Shown here: in pieces, positions 7,079 to 43,160 of the stretch
Numbering within the stretch: the first letter of the stretch is position 1
Layout: the number at the start of each line of letters is the position of its first letter
From: Actinomycetes bacterium
GTDB taxonomy: Bacteria > Armatimonadota > SYMT01
Assembly: GCA_031426395.1 (NCBI GenBank)
Contig: JANPLG010000399.1
Coordinates: forward strand, 1 to 60,658
Direction: 5' to 3'
DNA length: 60,658 nt
The notes under the pieces: model-generated
The model's input: the letters and a program-made list of their open reading frames with translations, nothing else
The model's database searches: none
Told to the model about the DNA's origin: nothing
Position numbers and translations under genes: made by a program

Positions 7079-7384
7079 TTAGGCGCTGGCCTTGGCAGCC
7101 TTCGCGGCGGCGCGCACTTCGGCCTTGCCCTCGGTGAACTTGTCCAGAATACCCTGGCCCTTGAGCAGGTAGGCGGCAGTATCGCTAGGCTGGGCACCGC
7201 GGTTGAGCCAGAGGAGGGCCTTGGTCTCGTCGATCTTGACGGTGGCCGGGTCGGTGAGCGGATCGTAGTAGCCGATCTGGTCGATGGTGCCGCCATCGCG
7301 CTTGGAGGCCGACTTGGCCACGACGATGCGGTAGAACGGGCGCTTCTTGGCACCCATGCGGGTGAGGCGGATACGGACGGGCAA
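7079..7384 (-). CDS. rpsP: 30S ribosomal protein S16
   Basis: [38 protein letters not shown]; TTG start. Confidence 0.97.
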
Positions 7385-7436
7385 GGGATCTCTCCTGAAA
7401 GGGACCGGTTAGGATCTTGAAAAGTACTGGCGCCGA

Positions 7437-8792
7437 TTAGCGCCGAAAGGGCATACGACCCATCATGCGGCCCATGCCGGGGAGCTTCTTCTTCCCGGTC
7501 TGGAGCTTGTGGATCTGGGAAAACATCGAGCGCATCTGCTCGAACTCTTTAAGGACCTGGTTGACTTCCTGAACGCTGGTGCCGCTGCCCTTGGCAATGC
7601 GGCGGCGGCGCGCGCCGTTGATGAGCTCCGGCTCGCGGCGCTCCTGTCGGGTCATGGACTGGATGATGGCCTGGGTGTGGACCATCTTCTTCTCGTCCAT
7701 CTCCGGCTTCGGCATGTTGGCCTGGTTGAAGCCGGGGAGGGCACCGAGGATCTGATCCAACGGACCCATCTTGCGCACCTGCACCAGTTGGGAAAGGAAG
7801 TCTTCCAGGTCAAACTTGTTCGCCTTGAGCCGCTTCTCCAGCTCAAGCGCCGCTTTCTCATCCACCGCGAACTGCGCCTTCTCGATAATCGAGAGGACAT
7901 CGCCCATGCCGAGGATGCGGGAGGCCATCCGGGTGGGGTGGAACGGCTCAATGGCGTCCAGTTTCTCCCCGATGCCGGCGAACTTGATTGGCTTGCCGGT
8001 GACGGCGCGAATGGAGATGGCTGCGCCACCGCGAGCATCGCCGTCCAGCTTGGAGAGCACGAAGCCGGTCACGTTCAGGCGCTCGGTGAATTGGGTCGCC
8101 ACCGTGACGGCGTCCTGGCCGGTCATGGCGTCCAGCACTAGCAGGATCTCGGCGGGCTGCAGCGTCGCCTGGAGTTGGGCGACTTCGGTCATCATCTCTT
8201 CGTCGACATGAAGGCGGCCCGCAGTATCGATGATGACCACGTCGCACTGCTGCGCCTGAGCTGCCCGGAGGCCGTCCTGCGCGATGCGGACTACGTCCTT
8301 CTGCTCATGGTCCGCGTGAACCGGGACCTTGACTGACTCTCCCACCACCTGAAGCTGCTTGATGGCTGCCGGACGATAGACGTCGCACGCCACAAGGAAC
8401 GGGCGGCGGCCCTGCCGGCGCACCAGCGTGGCCAGCTTGGCGCAGGTGGTCGTCTTACCGGACCCCTGCAAGCCGACCATCATGATGACGGTCGGCGGGC
8501 GGGAGGAGTACTGGATGCGGCTCTCATCCTCACCGAGGACGGCACACAGCTCCTCATTGACGATGGAGATGACCTGCTGGCCGGGCGTAAGGCTTTCCAG
8601 CACCTCGGATCCGACGGACCGCTCCTTGATCCGCGCCACGAGGTCCTTGACCACCTTGAAGTTCACGTCCGCTTCAAGCAGCGCCAAGCGCACCTCGCGC
8701 AAGGCATCGTTCACGTCCTGCTCGCGCAGCGTGCCCTTGCCCCGCAGGCGGCCGAAGATGCCTGTCAGCTTTTGAGAGAGGTTCTGGAACAT
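7437..8792 (-). CDS. ffh: Signal recognition particle protein
   Basis: MFQNLSQKL start; GLQGSGKTTT, DTAGR, KLDGDARGG; Met-rich M domain with SRRRRIAKGSG-like motif. Confidence 0.98.
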   Translation of the reverse strand: MFQNLSQKLTGIFGRLRGKGTLREQDVNDALREVRLALLEADVNFKVVKDLVARIKERSVGSEVLESLTPGQQVISIVNEELCAVLGEDESRIQYSSRPPTVIMMVGLQGSGKTTTCAKLATLVRRQGRRPFLVACDVYRPAAIKQLQVVGESVKVPVHADHEQKDVVRIAQDGLRAAQAQQCDVVIIDTAGRLHVDEEMMTEVAQLQATLQPAEILLVLDAMTGQDAVTVATQFTERLNVTGFVLSKLDGDARGGAAISIRAVTGKPIKFAGIGEKLDAIEPFHPTRMASRILGMGDVLSIIEKAQFAVDEKAALELEKRLKANKFDLEDFLSQLVQVRKMGPLDQILGALPGFNQANMPKPEMDEKKMVHTQAIIQSMTRQERREPELINGARRRRIAKGSGTSVQEVNQVLKEFEQMRSMFSQIHKLQTGKKKLPGMGRMMGRMPFRR

Positions 8793-34890: not shown

Positions 34891-35463
34891 CTACTTCTTG
34901 CCGCCCTTGCCGCCCTTGGCGCTCTTGCCAGCCTTGCGGCGTACAGCCTCGCCCCGGTACCGGATCCCCTTACCCTTGTAAGGCTCCGGCTTCTTGAGGG
35001 CGCGGATCTCCGCCGCCTGCTGCCCTACCAGCTCCTTGTCGATCCCGATGACCCGCAGCCAGAACTGGCGGGTGTTGGTCTCCTGGCCGACTTCGAACCT
35101 GATCCCGGGCTTGGGGTGGACTTCCACGAGGTGGGAGTACCCGATCTGCATCCGGACCGCCTCGCCGATCTTTTCGGCGCGGAAGCCGACGCCGACGATG
35201 TCGAGCGTCTTCTCATAGCCGTCCGTCACGCCCTTGACCATGTTGGCCACCAGCGTCCGAACGAGCCCGTGCATGGCGCGGGCCGCCTGCTCATCGCTGG
35301 GGCGCTCCACCAGGAGCTGCCCGTCTTCCTGGCGCAGGATGATGCCACCAGGAACATCCCGCTCCAGGGACCCCTTGGGGCCCTTGACTACTATGTGGCC
35401 ATTGTTCCTGGTCACTTCCACCCCCGCGGGGAGAGGGATGGGTTGCTTACCGATCCGAGACAT
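34891..35463 (-). CDS. rplF: 50S ribosomal protein L6
   Basis: MSRIGKQPI, VKGPKG, PEPYKGKGIRY. Confidence 0.97.
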   Translation of the reverse strand: MSRIGKQPIPLPAGVEVTRNNGHIVVKGPKGSLERDVPGGIILRQEDGQLLVERPSDEQAARAMHGLVRTLVANMVKGVTDGYEKTLDIVGVGFRAEKIGEAVRMQIGYSHLVEVHPKPGIRFEVGQETNTRQFWLRVIGIDKELVGQQAAEIRALKKPEPYKGKGIRYRGEAVRRKAGKSAKGGKGGKK

Positions 35464-36000: not shown

Positions 36001-36186
36001 TTACCAGCTTGCTTTGGTCACGCCGGGAATGAGTCCCCGGAGCGCCATCTCACGCAGACAGATCCGGCACAGGCCGAACTTGCGGAAGTACCCACGTGCC
36101 CGTCCACAAACGTTGCAACGCTTGTAGCTGCGCACCTGGAACTTCTGCGGCCGCCTGGCCTTCACGATGAGAGCGACTTTAGCCAT
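36001..36186 (-). CDS. rpsN: 30S ribosomal protein S14, Zn-binding type
   Basis: CNVCGRARG...[16 protein letters not shown]. Confidence 0.97.
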
Positions 36187-38221
36187 GCTCCTCGCGTTCC
36201 TTCCTTGCCTTCTCGATCACCTGCAGCGCCACGTTGCCGGGCACTTCCTCGTAATGACTGAACGAGGTGGTGAATTTCCCTCGCCCCCGCGCAATGCTGC
36301 GCAGCTCGATGGCGTAGCTCTGTAGTTCCGCCTGAGGCGCCGAGGCCCGGATGCATTGACGCCCGTTGCCTATCGGCTCCATCCCCAGGATGCGGCCCCG
36401 CCGCGTGTTCATATCACTGATCACGTCACCCATGTACTGCTCGGGAACCGTGATCTCGAGATTGCTCACGGGCTCCACCAACACCGGTCGGCATTTCTCC
36501 ATGCCGGCCCGGAATGCCAGATGGGCCGCCTGCCGGAACGCCATCTCAGACGAGTCGACATCGTGAAACGAGCCGTCGTCACAGGTGGCTTTAAAATCCA
36601 CGACAGGAAACCCGCCCAGAATACCATGCTCCGTCGCTTCATGCAGCCCTTTATCTACGGCGGGAATGAACTGGCGCGGAATTGACCCTCCAACGATGGC
36701 GTCCACGAACTGGTAGCCGGCTCCGCGCTCCAACGGCTCGAACTTGACCCAGCAGTCGCCGAACTGGCCGCGACCCCCCGTCTGCTTCTTGTGGCGCCCC
36801 TGGACGCGCGCCGTGCCGGTGATCGTCTCCCGATAGGAGATGCGGACGGCGACCTCCCTGACGTGGGTCCCATGCCGCTTCAGCCGGTCGATGACGACGG
36901 CGAGGTGGGTGTCTCCCTGGCCGGAGATGATGGTCTGACCGGTCTCCGGCTCACGGTGGAAGTGGAAGGTGGGGTCCTCCTCCGCCAGGCGGCCCAGCGC
37001 GGGGCCCATCCTGTCCTCGTCCGCCTTGGTGAGAGCCACGACGGCGCGGCTGTAGGAGGGCGCGGGGAACTCGATGCCGGGAAGCGTCTCGGACTTGCCG
37101 CGCTCGCAGAGGGTGTCTCCGGTGCCGGTGCCGGCGAGCTTGGCCGTGGCAGCGATATCGCCGGCAGCCACATCCGTCAGCGGCTCCTGCTGCTTTCCGC
37201 GCAGCGCGAAGAGCTGGCCCAGATGCTCCTCATGGTGGCGCTGGGCATTCTGGACATAGGCGCCGCCCTTGAGGACCCCGCCGTACACGCGGTAGTAGGT
37301 GACCTTGCCGACGTAGGGATCGCTCTGGGTCTTGAAGACGAGGGCCTGGAGGGGCGCTTCCTCCCTCGCGCCGGCCGCGCCGGCCTCGGCAGCGGAAGGG
37401 GTCATCTCGACGAGCGCATCGAGGAGCGCGTGGATTCCGGTGCAGTTGGAAGCAGCGGTGAAGAGAACCGGAATGGTATTCCCGGACTTGATCGCCTTCA
37501 CGATTCCGGCACACAGTTCGTCACCGGTGAGCTGCTCGCCGCCAAGGTATTTCTCCAGCAGTGAGTCATCCGCTTCGGCGGCGCACTCCATGAGGCATTC
37601 GCGGACACGGTCCACCTCCCGCTGGCAAGACGGGGGCACAGGACCGGTCTGGACGTCCTTGCCGCTGCCGGTGTAGGCGATGCCCCGCAGCACGTCCACC
37701 ACGCCCTGGAACGAGCGCTCCTGCCCAATGGGGATCTGCACCGGCACGCACCGGCCGCCGAAGACGCCCGTGATCGATTCCATCACCCGGCCGTAATCCG
37801 CGTTCTCCCGGTCCATCTTGTTGACCACGATTATCTTCGGGATGTGCCGGTCCGCCGCCAGCTCCCAGGCGGCCTCCGTGCCGACCTCCACGCCGGAAGG
37901 ACCGTTCACGGTCAGCAGGGCGGTATCGGCAACGCGGACCCCGCTGCCGACCTCTCCGATGAAGTCGAGATAGCCGGGAGCGTCCAGCAGGTTGATCTTG
38001 GCGTTCTCCCACTCCAGGGGCGCCAGCGCGAGGTTAATACTGATCCTTCGCTTCACCTCTTCCGGATCGAAGTCGGTGCGGGAACTGCCCTCGTCCACGC
38101 GGCCCAGACGGTCGACCGCGCCGGAGACGTAGAGCATGGCTTCCGTGAGGCTGGTCTTGCCGGAACCCTGGTGGCCGGCCACGACCACGTTGTGGATGGC
38201 ATCGCTGCGGTACCGCTTCAT
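36179..38221 (-). CDS. fusA: Elongation factor G paralog (EF-G2/EFG II type)
   Basis: All five EF-G domains; G1 GHQGSGKT, switch I RRISI, G3 DAPGY, G4 NKMD; domain [13 protein letters not shown] and [14 protein letters not shown]; AAGGAGG RBS. Confidence 0.93.
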
Positions 38222-38466: not shown

Positions 38467-39012
38467 CTACTTCTCAGCCCGGAAAGGAAGCCCCAGCCCC
38501 TTGAGGAGGGCGCGGCCTTCCTGGTCGGTCTTCGCCGTAGTGGTGATAATGATATCCATCCCGCGGATGCGATCAATCTGATCGTAGTCGATTTCCGGGA
38601 AAACAAGCTGTTCCTTCAGCCCCGTGGCGAAGTTGCCGTGCCCGTCGAACGAGTTCGGGTTGATCCCGCCGAAGTCACGGATGCGCGGCATCACCACGCT
38701 GAAGAGCTTGTCTAGGAAGAACCACATGCGGTCGCCGCGGATGGTCACCTTGGCACCGATCCGCATGCCCTCGCGGATCTTGAAGGCTGCGATCGACTTC
38801 TTGGCGCGGGTCACCACCGGCTTCTGGCCGGAGATGGCGGTCATGTCCTTCACCGCCGCGTCGATCGTCTTGGGGTCCTGCACGGCGGTGCTGACGCCCA
38901 TGTTGATGACGACCTTCTCCACGCGCGGAACCTGCATGACGTTCTTGTAGCTGAACTCTTTCATCAGCGACGCGACGACTTCGCCGCGGTATTTGTCTCT
39001 GAGACGAGGCAT
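38467..39012 (-). CDS. rplE: 50S ribosomal protein L5
   Basis: [44 protein letters not shown]. Confidence 0.98.
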
Positions 39013-39208: not shown

Positions 39209-39568
39209 CTACTTGGCGGCGTCGAGGGTCGCGCCGCAATGCTTGCAGGCGCGGACCTTCTTGCCAGCCTCTTCCTTGTGGATCACGCGAGTCGGCTTGG
39301 CGCATCCGGGGCAGCAGACCATGAGGTTGCTGACGTGGACGGGGGCCGGCTTCTCGATCCGACCGCCCTGCTGAGCCTGGCCCATCGGCTTCTGGTGCTT
39401 GGTGATCATGTTGACGCCATCCACCGTGGCGCGCTCGCGCTGCGGATCGACGTTGAGGACCTTGCCCCGTTCGCCATTGCTGCGACCGGCGAGGACGAGG
39501 ACCTCGTCACCCTTCTTCAGATGCACCTTGAAGGTGGCGGTCACGTGACGCTTGCGCATCTGTCCCAT
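39209..39568 (-). CDS. rplX: 50S ribosomal protein L24
   Basis: KKGDEVLVLAG (KOW), VDGVN, EKPAPVHVSN; TAATG overlap with rplN. Confidence 0.96.
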   Translation of the reverse strand: MGQMRKRHVTATFKVHLKKGDEVLVLAGRSNGERGKVLNVDPQRERATVDGVNMITKHQKPMGQAQQGGRIEKPAPVHVSNLMVCCPGCAKPTRVIHKEEAGKKVRACKHCGATLDAAK

Positions 39569-40428: not shown

Positions 40429-40638
40429 TTACTGCTGCTCCAGCTCGCGCTGGCTGATGTAGGTCAGGATGCGCGCAATCTTCTTGCGCCCCTTGCGCAG
40501 CGGCTCGGCATTATCCAGAGCGCGGGTGGCATAGCGCACCCGGTTCTGGAACAACTCCTGCCGTGCCTCCCGCAGCTCCTGCTGCAGCTCCACCAGGCCG
40601 AGACCGGCGAGAGCGGTTCGCTCTTCCTGCGTGCTCAT
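40429..40638 (-). CDS. rpmC: 50S ribosomal protein L29
   Basis: ELFQNR...RKKIARILT; position between rplP and rpsQ. Confidence 0.9.
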
Positions 40639-41117
40639 TCGGTGGCCTCCGTTGCTTCCGTAGCCTCGGCGGCAACGGCAACCGGCTCCAGCGCGCTCTC
40701 CGTCTCGGGCTGGCCCTTGACGATGAACTTCACCGGGATCGGCAGCTTGTATGCCGCGCGACGCATGGCCTCGCGGGCCAGGGGCTCCGCGACGCCGGAC
40801 ATCTCAAATAGGATTCGACCAGGCTTGACCACGGCCACCCACCCCTCGGGAGCACCCTTACCGGAACCCATGCGGGTTTCCGCCGGCTTCTTGGTGTAGC
40901 TCTTGTCCGGGAAGATGCGGATCCAGATCTTGCCGCCGCGCTTGACGTGGCGCGTCATGGCGATACGAGCGGACTCGATCTGCTGGCTGGTGATCCAGGA
41001 ACGGTCGAGGGCCTTCAGGGCGAATTCGCCGAAAAGGATATCGACCCCGCCCTTGGCGTTCCCACCCATGCTGCCGCGGTGCACCTTGCGGTGCTTCACT
41101 CTCTTTGGCGCTAACAT
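40635..41117 (-). CDS. rplP: 50S ribosomal protein L16
   Basis: [35 protein letters not shown]. Confidence 0.98.
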
Positions 41118-41193: not shown

Positions 41194-42099
41194 TTAACCG
41201 CGCGGAGCGCCACCGGGGCGTCCGCCGCCGCCGCCACCGCTACGTCCGCCGCCACCGCCGCCGCCGCCACGGTAGCCGCCACGGTCTCCGCCGCCGCCAC
41301 CGCCGCCACGTCCGCCACGGTCTCCACCGCCGCCGCCGCCACCGCCACGTCCGCCGCGATCTCCGCCGCCGCCGGAGCGCTCGCTGCGTTCCCGCTCACG
41401 GTCCTCGGCACGGCGCGGCTGCCGGGTAACGAACGGCTCGTTCTGAGCGCGCTCCTTCTGCTCACGGCGCTGATCGGCCAGGATGTCGCCCTTGTAGAGC
41501 CACACCTTGATACCGATGTTGCCGTAGGTGGTTCCCGCTTCAGCGAAACCGTAATCGATGTCGGCGCGGAGGGTGTGAAGCGGGATCTTGCCCGTCTTGT
41601 CACCTTCCTTGCGCGCCATCTCGGCACCGCCCAGGCGACCACTCACCAGGACCTTGATTCCCTTGGCACCGACGCGGACGCTGCGCTGGATCGCCTGGCG
41701 GATGGCGCGCTTCGGCGCCACGCGCTTCTCGATCTGCTGGGCAATCGCTTCCGCCACGAGTTGGGCGTCCAGGTCCGGCTGCCGGATCTCCTGCACCACC
41801 AGATTGACCTGCTTGGCGAATTTCTTCTCCAGGTCCGCCTTGGTGTCGTCCACGCCGCGGCCGCCACGCCCGATGATCACGCCCGGCTTGCCGGTGTGCA
41901 GGGTGACCCGCAGCTTATCGGCCTGGCGGTCGATGGTAATGCGGGAGATGGCCGCGTTCATGAGCCGCTTCTTGAGGTAGCGGCGGATTTGGTAGTCTTC
42001 GTAGAGCCGCTGCGCGTAGTCTTTGTCCGCGTACCAGTTGCTCTCCCAGTCCCGGATGATGCCGATCCGGAAACCGATTGGATGAACTTTCTGACCCAT
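41194..42099 (-). CDS. rpsC: 30S ribosomal protein S3 with a Gly/Arg-rich C-terminal tail
   Basis: [43 protein letters not shown]. Confidence 0.98.
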
Positions 42100-42143
42100 A
42101 CTGTTCTCCGTAGTGGGTACTTCTCGTGAGCCCCTGGCAGCGC

Positions 42144-42749
42144 CTACGCCCGGGTGACGTTCGCCCGGCCCTTCGGCCGCTGGTTCTTCTTGGCCTTCGG
42201 CGTGGCGGCGGTGACCGCCACCCGGAGGTGCGCCGTGCGCTTCAGGATGCGGTAGGCCCGCCCCATGGCGCGCGGACGGATCCGCTTCTGCGTAGGACCC
42301 ACGTCCGCGTGCAGTACCGTGATCTTCAATTCATGCGGCTCGGCGCCCCAGCCCTCGAAGGCGTTGGCTGCCGCGCTGCGGATCAGCTTGAGGATGTAGC
42401 CGGCCGCGCGGTTGGGCACGAACTGAAGCGCGGCAAGCGCATCGTCCACGTACATTCCGCGAAGCTGGTTCATCACCCGCCGCGCCTTGCGGGAGGAGAC
42501 CCGCACATACTTGTGCGCCGCGTGCGCTTCCGGGGTCACCTCAAGGGTGACCGTCTTGCCCAGGGACCGCTCCAGCTCCGGAACGAGGTCCGCGCCGCGG
42601 CGGCTCTGCAAGGTGTCCGGCTTGACCGTATGGACGCTCAGCACGGCCATCGGGCCGGAGCCCTGAACCATGATCCGCCCAAACGGTGCCTTGTTGGTTC
42701 CGCGGCGAAGGATCTTCCTTACGCCGGGTCCCGCTTCATAAATTCCCAT
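42144..42749 (-). CDS. rplV: 50S ribosomal protein L22 with an N-terminal S3-like KH domain
   Basis: L22 core [10 protein letters not shown]...SAAANA...[11 protein letters not shown]...KRTAH preceded in frame by about 70 aa; ATG at 42749 with a GGAG RBS. Confidence 0.93.
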
Positions 42750-42872
42750 TCGCTTCGCTCCCACCTCGCGGTCCCGCCGCGCGGTAGCTTTGACAGCAGC
42801 CAGCTTCTCTCCCGGCCGGGGTGCTCACGCTCGTGCACACGCTCGCCGGCCAGAAGGAAAGGCTTGCCCGCC

Positions 42873-43160
42873 CTATCGGAGGCCGCTAGACCGTTCGCGC
42901 GGGCCGCCGGCGTGGCCCTTGTAGTTCCGGGTGAGCGCGAACTCGCCCAGCTTGTGGCCCACCATGTTCTCCGTGACGAAGATCGGCACATGAGTCTTGC
43001 CGTTGTGCACCGCGAGGGTGTGCCCGATGAAGCTGGGGAAGATCGTCGATCGGCGGGACCATGTCTTGATGATCCGCTTCTCGCCGCGAGAGTTCATCTC
43101 GTCGACCTTATCCAACAGCTTCGGGTCCGCATAAGGTCCCTTTTTAAGTGAGCGTCCCAT
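42873..43160 (-). CDS. rpsS: 30S ribosomal protein S19
   Basis: [32 protein letters not shown]. Confidence 0.98.

Follow-up and report, generated by a model that had tools for sequence, protein, structure and literature searches.

Canonical bacterial uL22 is a protein of about 110–130 amino acids (aa). Lineage-specific extensions of ribosomal proteins are known, and growth of the universal ribosomal proteins usually takes the form of disordered tails or short helices. uL22 belongs to the proteins that surround the tunnel exit, with its globular domain on the solvent face (PMC5071890, PMC13338714). On the solvent side of chloroplast ribosomes, plastid-specific parts of uL22c help to place uL13c and touch bL21c close to the 3′ end of the 23S rRNA (PMC5071890, PMC5694952). 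Another large relative is PRK12279, the "L22/unknown domain fusion protein" of NCBIfam (311 aa), in which uL22 is joined to an additional region. Our full-text literature search found no account of a uL22 protein carrying a KH domain and no structure of an Armatimonadota ribosome, in line with the original prediction for the DNA described here, which knew of no description of this architecture.

The window analyzed in this study is the whole stretch of 60,658 nucleotides at positions 1 to 60,658 of contig JANPLG010000399.1 of an Armatimonadota assembly. It derives from a freshwater sediment metagenome, and sequencing run X1 contains all words sampled from it. Between 38 and 46 kb, the minus strand carries an S10/spc-type operon encoding S10, L3, L4, L23, L2, S19, L22, S3, L16, L29, S17, L14, L24, and L5. 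The rplV gene (42144..42749, minus strand, stop codon included) lies between rpsS and rpsC, with its ATG at 42749–42747 and its TAG stop codon at 42146–42144. It encodes a complete uL22 of 201 aa that consists of a KH-like N-terminal extension (aa 1–73; 42531..42749), the uL22 core with its tunnel β-hairpin (aa 77–179; 42213..42521), and a short basic C-terminal tail of low model confidence (aa 180–201; 42147..42212), all on the minus strand. Full-length homologues of this protein share 55–90% identity with it. The upstream neighbor is rpsS (uS19; 42873..43160, minus strand). On the other side, rpsC (41194..42099, minus strand) encodes an intact uS3 of 301 aa, the putative donor of the KH domain, with its own KH_2 domain at aa 38–109 (nt 41773–41988; Pfam KH_2, E = 2.8e-16), an intact GRGG loop, and a Ribosomal_S3_C domain (Pfam, E = 3.8e-32). 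Because rpsC next to rplV still encodes a complete uS3, KH domain included, the extension represents an additional copy rather than a relocation. The order S19–L22–S3 is kept in every locus fetched (L001–L007).

The assignment of the product to the uL22 family is established by family models, operon position, and predicted fold. Pfam PF00237 (Ribosomal_L22) matches aa 77–179 with E = 2.2e-30 and 105.4 bits against a cut-off of 28, and TIGR01044 (rplV_bact) matches the same residues with 113.1 bits against a cut-off of 73.65. In the AlphaFold model, the core includes strands at residues 141–154 and 170–181 and forms a globular α/β domain with a long β-hairpin. Compared to canonical uL22 proteins (T. 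thermophilus 1bxe, E. coli, and M. smegmatis 5o60_T), the core shows 35–50% identity, a Foldseek TMt of about 0.85 to solved chains, the same tunnel hairpin, and the same operon position, but the window protein is predicted to have an extra folded domain at its N-terminus. About 73–75 residues precede the core. Since residues 72–83 match the N-terminus of ancestral uL22, M-E-A-x-A-x-x-K-Y-V-R, the added segment was fused exactly at the old uL22 start. The product is a two-domain uL22 encoded by a genuine Armatimonadota rplV.

This organization differs from the two enlarged uL22 proteins described above. As in the window protein, spinach chloroplast uL22c (199 aa) has been nearly doubled in size by lineage-specific additions, and it provides the best precedent for the site and action of an added domain. 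However, the N- and C-terminal extensions of the plastid protein have not been reported to be KH-like or to derive from another ribosomal protein, and the full-length model of the window protein matched chloroplast chains (5mlc_U, 6eri_AS, and 5mmi_T) over the core only in Foldseek. PRK12279 has the opposite arrangement, with its L22 part at the N-terminus (residues 4–109 of 311) and its extra region at the C-terminus. Membership in PRK12279 was rejected, as the window protein scored 58.4 bits against a cut-off of 526 and its L22 part alone matched.

In sequence, the extension is a homologue of the uS3 type II KH domain (S3 residues ~32–103). The original prediction had aligned it with residues ~32–105 of the neighboring uS3 at 19–20 identities with two gaps. 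BLASTP gave a consistent result over a slightly shorter span, in which aa 10–71 of the extension matched aa 38–102 of uS3 with 18/65 identities, a single gap of three residues, and E = 8e-4. The Smith-Waterman score of the two segments was 65, and 5000 shuffles of the extension gave 29.1 ± 4.8 with a maximum of 59, none reaching 65. Chance is therefore excluded as the source of the similarity. The shared identities fall at positions that are invariant in the N-terminal domains of five syntenic Armatimonadota uS3 proteins (alignment A4), which were picked by gene position and not by similarity. They include R25 of the extension (R53 of uS3), the HTxKP motif, the last glycine of the GXXG loop, the L-E of helix 3, and the pattern of the final strand. 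The HTVKP segment of the extension (aa 40–44; 42618..42632, minus strand) aligns to HTGKP of uS3, and its P44 is invariant across all aligned fusion proteins.

Profile searches extended these observations to other proteins. A profile was built from 46 extension sequences (alignment A2) and compared with all PDB chain sequences. The top 41 matches were all uS3, with a best E of 1.5e-5, and all of them aligned through the N-terminal KH domain (S3 residues ~31–103). At E values up to 10, the PDB matches included no Era, NusA, KhpA, or other KH protein. An exhaustive HMMER search of 1.84 billion representative proteins with the same profile gave 26 matches at E ≤ 1e-3. The first eleven were uL22 fusions or fragments, and nearly all of the others were uS3 proteins or fragments matched at ~31–105. 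The exceptions were a low-complexity repeat protein (P0132) and a chimeric open reading frame that bears the uS3 KH signature in the region matched (P0131). Comparison of the extension with the five A4 uS3 domains by hhalign gave a probability of 94.9% and E = 4.5e-8 over 66 columns. The original prediction had expected a KH or S3 match for this region, and the profile searches, hhalign, and Foldseek all returned the uS3 KH domain; the plain Pfam scan did not. Scanned alone against Pfam and NCBIfam, neither the extension nor any of the 46 family members taken individually matched KH or another credible family, and KH matches were lacking for all of them at E values up to 10. The homology to uS3 is visible only with a family profile. 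The longer subtype of the extension (see below) gave a weaker signal when used alone, with 71% in hhalign against uS3 and E values of 0.3–2.8 for PDB uS3 chains; Nup54 ranked first in that PDB search, which was not significant, and was discarded as spurious. Four short matches of 89–153 aa (P0122, P0123, P0124, and P0126) were considered as free-standing KH-like genes and rejected, as they resemble truncated or frameshifted fragments of fusion genes.

Structure prediction led to the same family. AlphaFold2 on the extension alignment gave a model with a mean pLDDT of 77.9, consisting of helix 8–17, strands 23–31 and 34–41, helices 44–49 and 51–63, and strand 66–73. This predicted α-β-β-α-α-β order is that of the type II KH topology and of the uS3 N-terminal KH domain (KH_2, PF07650), which provides both the best profile matches and the best structural matches of the extension. 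In Foldseek, the first ~40 PDB matches of the model were bacterial uS3 chains (TMq 0.69–0.77, rmsd ~2.3 Å, 65–70 residues), followed by yeast Rps3 and the human S3 KH domain. A full-length AlphaFold model (mean pLDDT 85.7, pTM 0.76) contained the same KH elements, with a pLDDT of about 92 in the extension. In this model, the last KH strand runs unbroken into the first uL22 strand (residues 66–82), which suggests that the junction between the two domains is rigid. Searched with Foldseek, the full-length model matched uL22 chains over the core only; almost all of the best 50 alignments spanned 106–113 columns and the longest 127, with TMq ≤ 0.50. No equivalent extra domain was seen in the solved uL22 proteins among these 50, which included chloroplast, mycobacterial, and mitochondrial chains.

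While the extension shares the predicted fold and the sequence pattern of the uS3 domain, it departs from it in several respects. It has neither residues 1–30 of uS3 nor any part of the S3 C-terminal domain, it lies below every Pfam KH threshold, it is located on a large-subunit protein, and its net charge is +4 compared to +8 for the uS3 KH segment. Moreover, its GXXG motif, the canonical nucleic-acid-binding loop of KH domains, is degenerate or absent. At this position, the window protein has SRRG (aa 49–52; 42594..42605, minus strand) where the neighboring uS3 has GRGG, so that the first glycine has been lost, just as had been noted from the sequence at the outset. Among the 75-residue extensions of the window type, a tetrapeptide of the GXXG form occurs in only a handful (GRRG in two) and most have xRR[GSTN], while the longer subtype has VRME or a similar sequence. 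The residues conserved in all subtypes (P22, R25, V36/V37, P44, L55, L59, and V67) look mostly like determinants of the fold. As the GXXG loop has been lost and the position is not conserved between subtypes, canonical binding of single-stranded RNA appears unlikely as a conserved function of the domain. Two formal marks of a KH domain are thus missing from the extension, a Pfam KH match and the GXXG motif expected in the loop that joins helices 2 and 3, and we therefore refer to it as a uS3-derived, degenerate KH-like domain and not as a canonical KH domain.

The extension is widely distributed. Two homologue searches found it at the N-terminus of uL22 in at least 190 protein clusters (90% identity level), which fall into three sequence subtypes: the window type (~200 aa, 75 clusters) and the "MNTAARDR" and "MERPMNTA" types, which together account for 115 clusters of mostly 260–334 aa. 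A scan of a genome collection with a narrower extension alignment returned three loci. The credibly named carriers are Armatimonadota/Armatimonadetes metagenome-assembled genomes (MAGs), Capsulimonas sp., and the isolate Capsulimonas corticalis, whose uL22 (WP_119322394.1 / BDI31315.1, 273 aa) is annotated as "hypothetical protein" or as uL22; two MAG records named Janthinobacterium lividum and Pseudomonadota bacterium are taken to be mislabeled. Mean pairwise identity is 63% in the extension and 75% in the core, and Nei-Gojobori dN/dS values for five genes are 0.15–0.34 over codons 1–73 and 0.07–0.25 over the core. These values, together with the number of clusters, bear out the earlier proposal that the segment has diverged while staying open under selection, and they indicate purifying selection on the extension in at least 190 clusters and all three subtypes. 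The longer subtype also carries an acidic C-terminal tail of 80–140 residues rich in Ala, Pro, Glu, and Thr (L004 4001–4972, L006 1501–2433, L007 119–1048, and P0255 of Capsulimonas corticalis). In a soil metatranscriptome, a contig derived from a relative overlaps the extension at 42589–42741 with ~86% identity.

Collectively, we consider it highly probable that uL22 in these bacteria carries a translated and selected KH-like domain derived from uS3. Three other explanations were weighed against this one. The in-frame stretch ahead of the uL22 core could be a fortuitously open leader outside the mature protein, with translation starting at the internal GTG of codon 71 (Val71; 42537..42539, minus strand), which the original prediction had raised as a candidate alternative start, or nearby. 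Codon 71 is indeed a GTG preceded by GAG in the window and three relatives, and the ancestral M-E-A... terminus maps to residues 72–75; but in two of the six loci compared this codon reads GTC (L003) or GTT (L004), and no properly spaced Shine-Dalgarno sequence lies ahead of this position in any of them. The start proposed originally, an ATG with its own ribosome-binding site, was found instead. A Shine-Dalgarno-like GAGGTGGGAG (42758..42767, minus strand) lies 8 nt 5′ of the rplV ATG, and a purine-rich sequence of this kind precedes the extension ATG by 6–12 nt in 6/6 loci. The program-made list of open reading frames opens the gene five codons earlier, at GTG 42764; since this GTG lies inside the Shine-Dalgarno sequence and close homologues of the window type begin at the ATG position, ATG 42749 was taken as the start. 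The sequence identity and low dN/dS of the upstream 73 codons, their open frame in at least 190 clusters, and the confidently predicted fold in the full-length model also argue against a leader, and internal initiation is thus a very improbable reading.

Still less credible is an artefact, that is, a chimeric contig or a frameshift that fused an rpsC fragment to rplV. We found nothing in its favor. A contig from the source run spans 41900–42955 with zero differences from the window sequence, and the artefact is already refuted by independent assemblies, among them closed genomes of 4–7.6 Mb and an isolate genome, that show this same architecture and synteny. A resemblance to uS3 arising by chance or convergence, or an origin from another KH protein (KhpA, Era, NusA, or an RbfA-like protein), draws on a pairwise identity of only 28%, single sequences without a Pfam KH match, the missing GXXG motif, and the non-significant PDB search with the longer subtype alone. 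Such an origin is nevertheless quite improbable, given that no shuffled sequence reached the observed score, that uS3 supplies all top 41 PDB matches and is the sole family other than uL22 among the 1.84 billion representatives, and that the hhalign probability, the best structural matches, and the R..I and HTxKP identities invariant in the A4 domains all point to uS3.

The likely origin of the extension, as inferred from these comparisons, is a duplication of the adjacent 5′ part of rpsC followed by in-frame fusion to the start of rplV. The adjacency of rplV and rpsC makes such a duplication plausible. A tandem duplication running from rplV to about codon 103 of rpsC would have placed an rpsC 5′ fragment directly before a second rplV copy, and the present gene would have resulted once the upstream rplV copy and the first ~30 rpsC codons had been lost. 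The spacer between rpsS and rplV (42750..42872, minus strand) is 123 nt, which is long for such a junction, and three-frame translation of it revealed no relic of uS3 residues 1–30. The fusion probably arose a single time, before the divergence of the carrier Armatimonadota lineages. The extension profile scored 15–29 bits against syntenic Armatimonadota uS3, 20–28 bits against PDB uS3, and 35–39 bits against the best uS3 proteins globally, and this comparison of own with other uS3 gave no signal of a recent origin within the lineage. As the extension is no nearer to the uS3 of its own lineage, the event would be old and would pre-date the split into three subtypes, although sequence cannot prove this.

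Several roles can be considered for the domain. In the reading that we favor, and hold to be probable as a whole, the protein is a two-domain uL22 whose uS3-derived KH copy acts as a structural module of the 50S subunit. The KH-like domain would enter the 50S subunit with uL22 and lie next to the uL22 globular domain on the solvent face, at the edge of the polypeptide exit region, where it may serve as an extra structural module packing on adjacent rRNA or proteins, or as a docking surface. A fixed extra module on the 50S surface is the most likely form of this role because of the analogy with chloroplast uL22c and the predicted rigid strand-to-strand junction; taken by itself, a structural role has about an even chance of being correct. 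A more far-reaching possibility, which we regard as unlikely, is that the domain creates a new functional site by the polypeptide exit, either a dock for a lineage-specific biogenesis or targeting factor or an RNA, or a uS3-mimicking surface that recruits a partner of uS3. If this were true, Armatimonadota ribosomes would own a working part that is absent from every ribosome studied. Equally doubtful in our judgment is a domain that is translated and selected for a regulatory or extraribosomal role, such as autocontrol through the S10-operon mRNA, service as a cleaved chaperone-like or assembly pro-domain, or mimicry of uS3 in binding a uS3 partner. Several ribosomal proteins control their own operons by RNA binding, as L4 does for the S10 operon in E. 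coli, and this established behavior, the two arginines that the window type retains in its GXXG position, and the 123-nt spacer ahead of rplV would fit such a role. Against a regulatory role, the subtypes do not share a conserved GXXG loop, spacer length in relatives ranges from 25 to 127 nt and an Rfam scan of the whole window for leader or regulatory RNAs gave no match, the modeled junction is a continuous strand without a linker or recognizable cleavage site, and the domain is only mildly basic.

The functional consequence of the domain may be modest. It is unusual that a large-subunit protein has received a copy of a folded domain from the small-subunit protein encoded alongside it and has kept this copy across many lineages of a phylum, and the locus offers a clear, datable case of how ribosomes may gain modules by local gene duplication and fusion. 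A protein domain that has so far gone unseen is predicted close to where the nascent chain emerges, on the solvent face of Armatimonadota 50S subunits, and the cultured carrier Capsulimonas corticalis makes this prediction directly testable. For annotation, current records name these proteins L22 or "hypothetical protein," and the extra domain is missed by Pfam.

Other features of the operon were observed along with rplV. In the genome of L004 (4.2 Mb, Armatimonadota type), two small genes without Pfam matches interrupt the operon, one of 90 aa between rpsJ and rplC (750–1022) and one of 93 aa between rpsQ and rplN (7273–7554). In the window, residues ~235–301 of uS3 (41194–41400, minus strand) form a Gly/Arg-rich, RGG-like tail of ~65 residues, and the tail is similar in the syntenic uS3 of L001, L002, and L004, so that it looks like a trait of the lineage. 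uL16 (160 aa) has a C-terminal tail beyond its Pfam domain (40635–40700, minus strand) that ends in the repeat ATEATEATE. uL24 (39209–39568, minus strand), which matches the Pfam L24 family, contains four cysteines in its C-terminal half (CPGC...CKHC), a pattern that suggests a zinc-ribbon type. Finally, a gene for an EF-G-like protein of 680 aa, in which Pfam recognizes all five EF-G domains (36179–38221, minus strand), is located between rplE (38467–39012) and rplF (34891–35463); the spc ribosomal-protein block is an unusual place for an EF-G paralogue.
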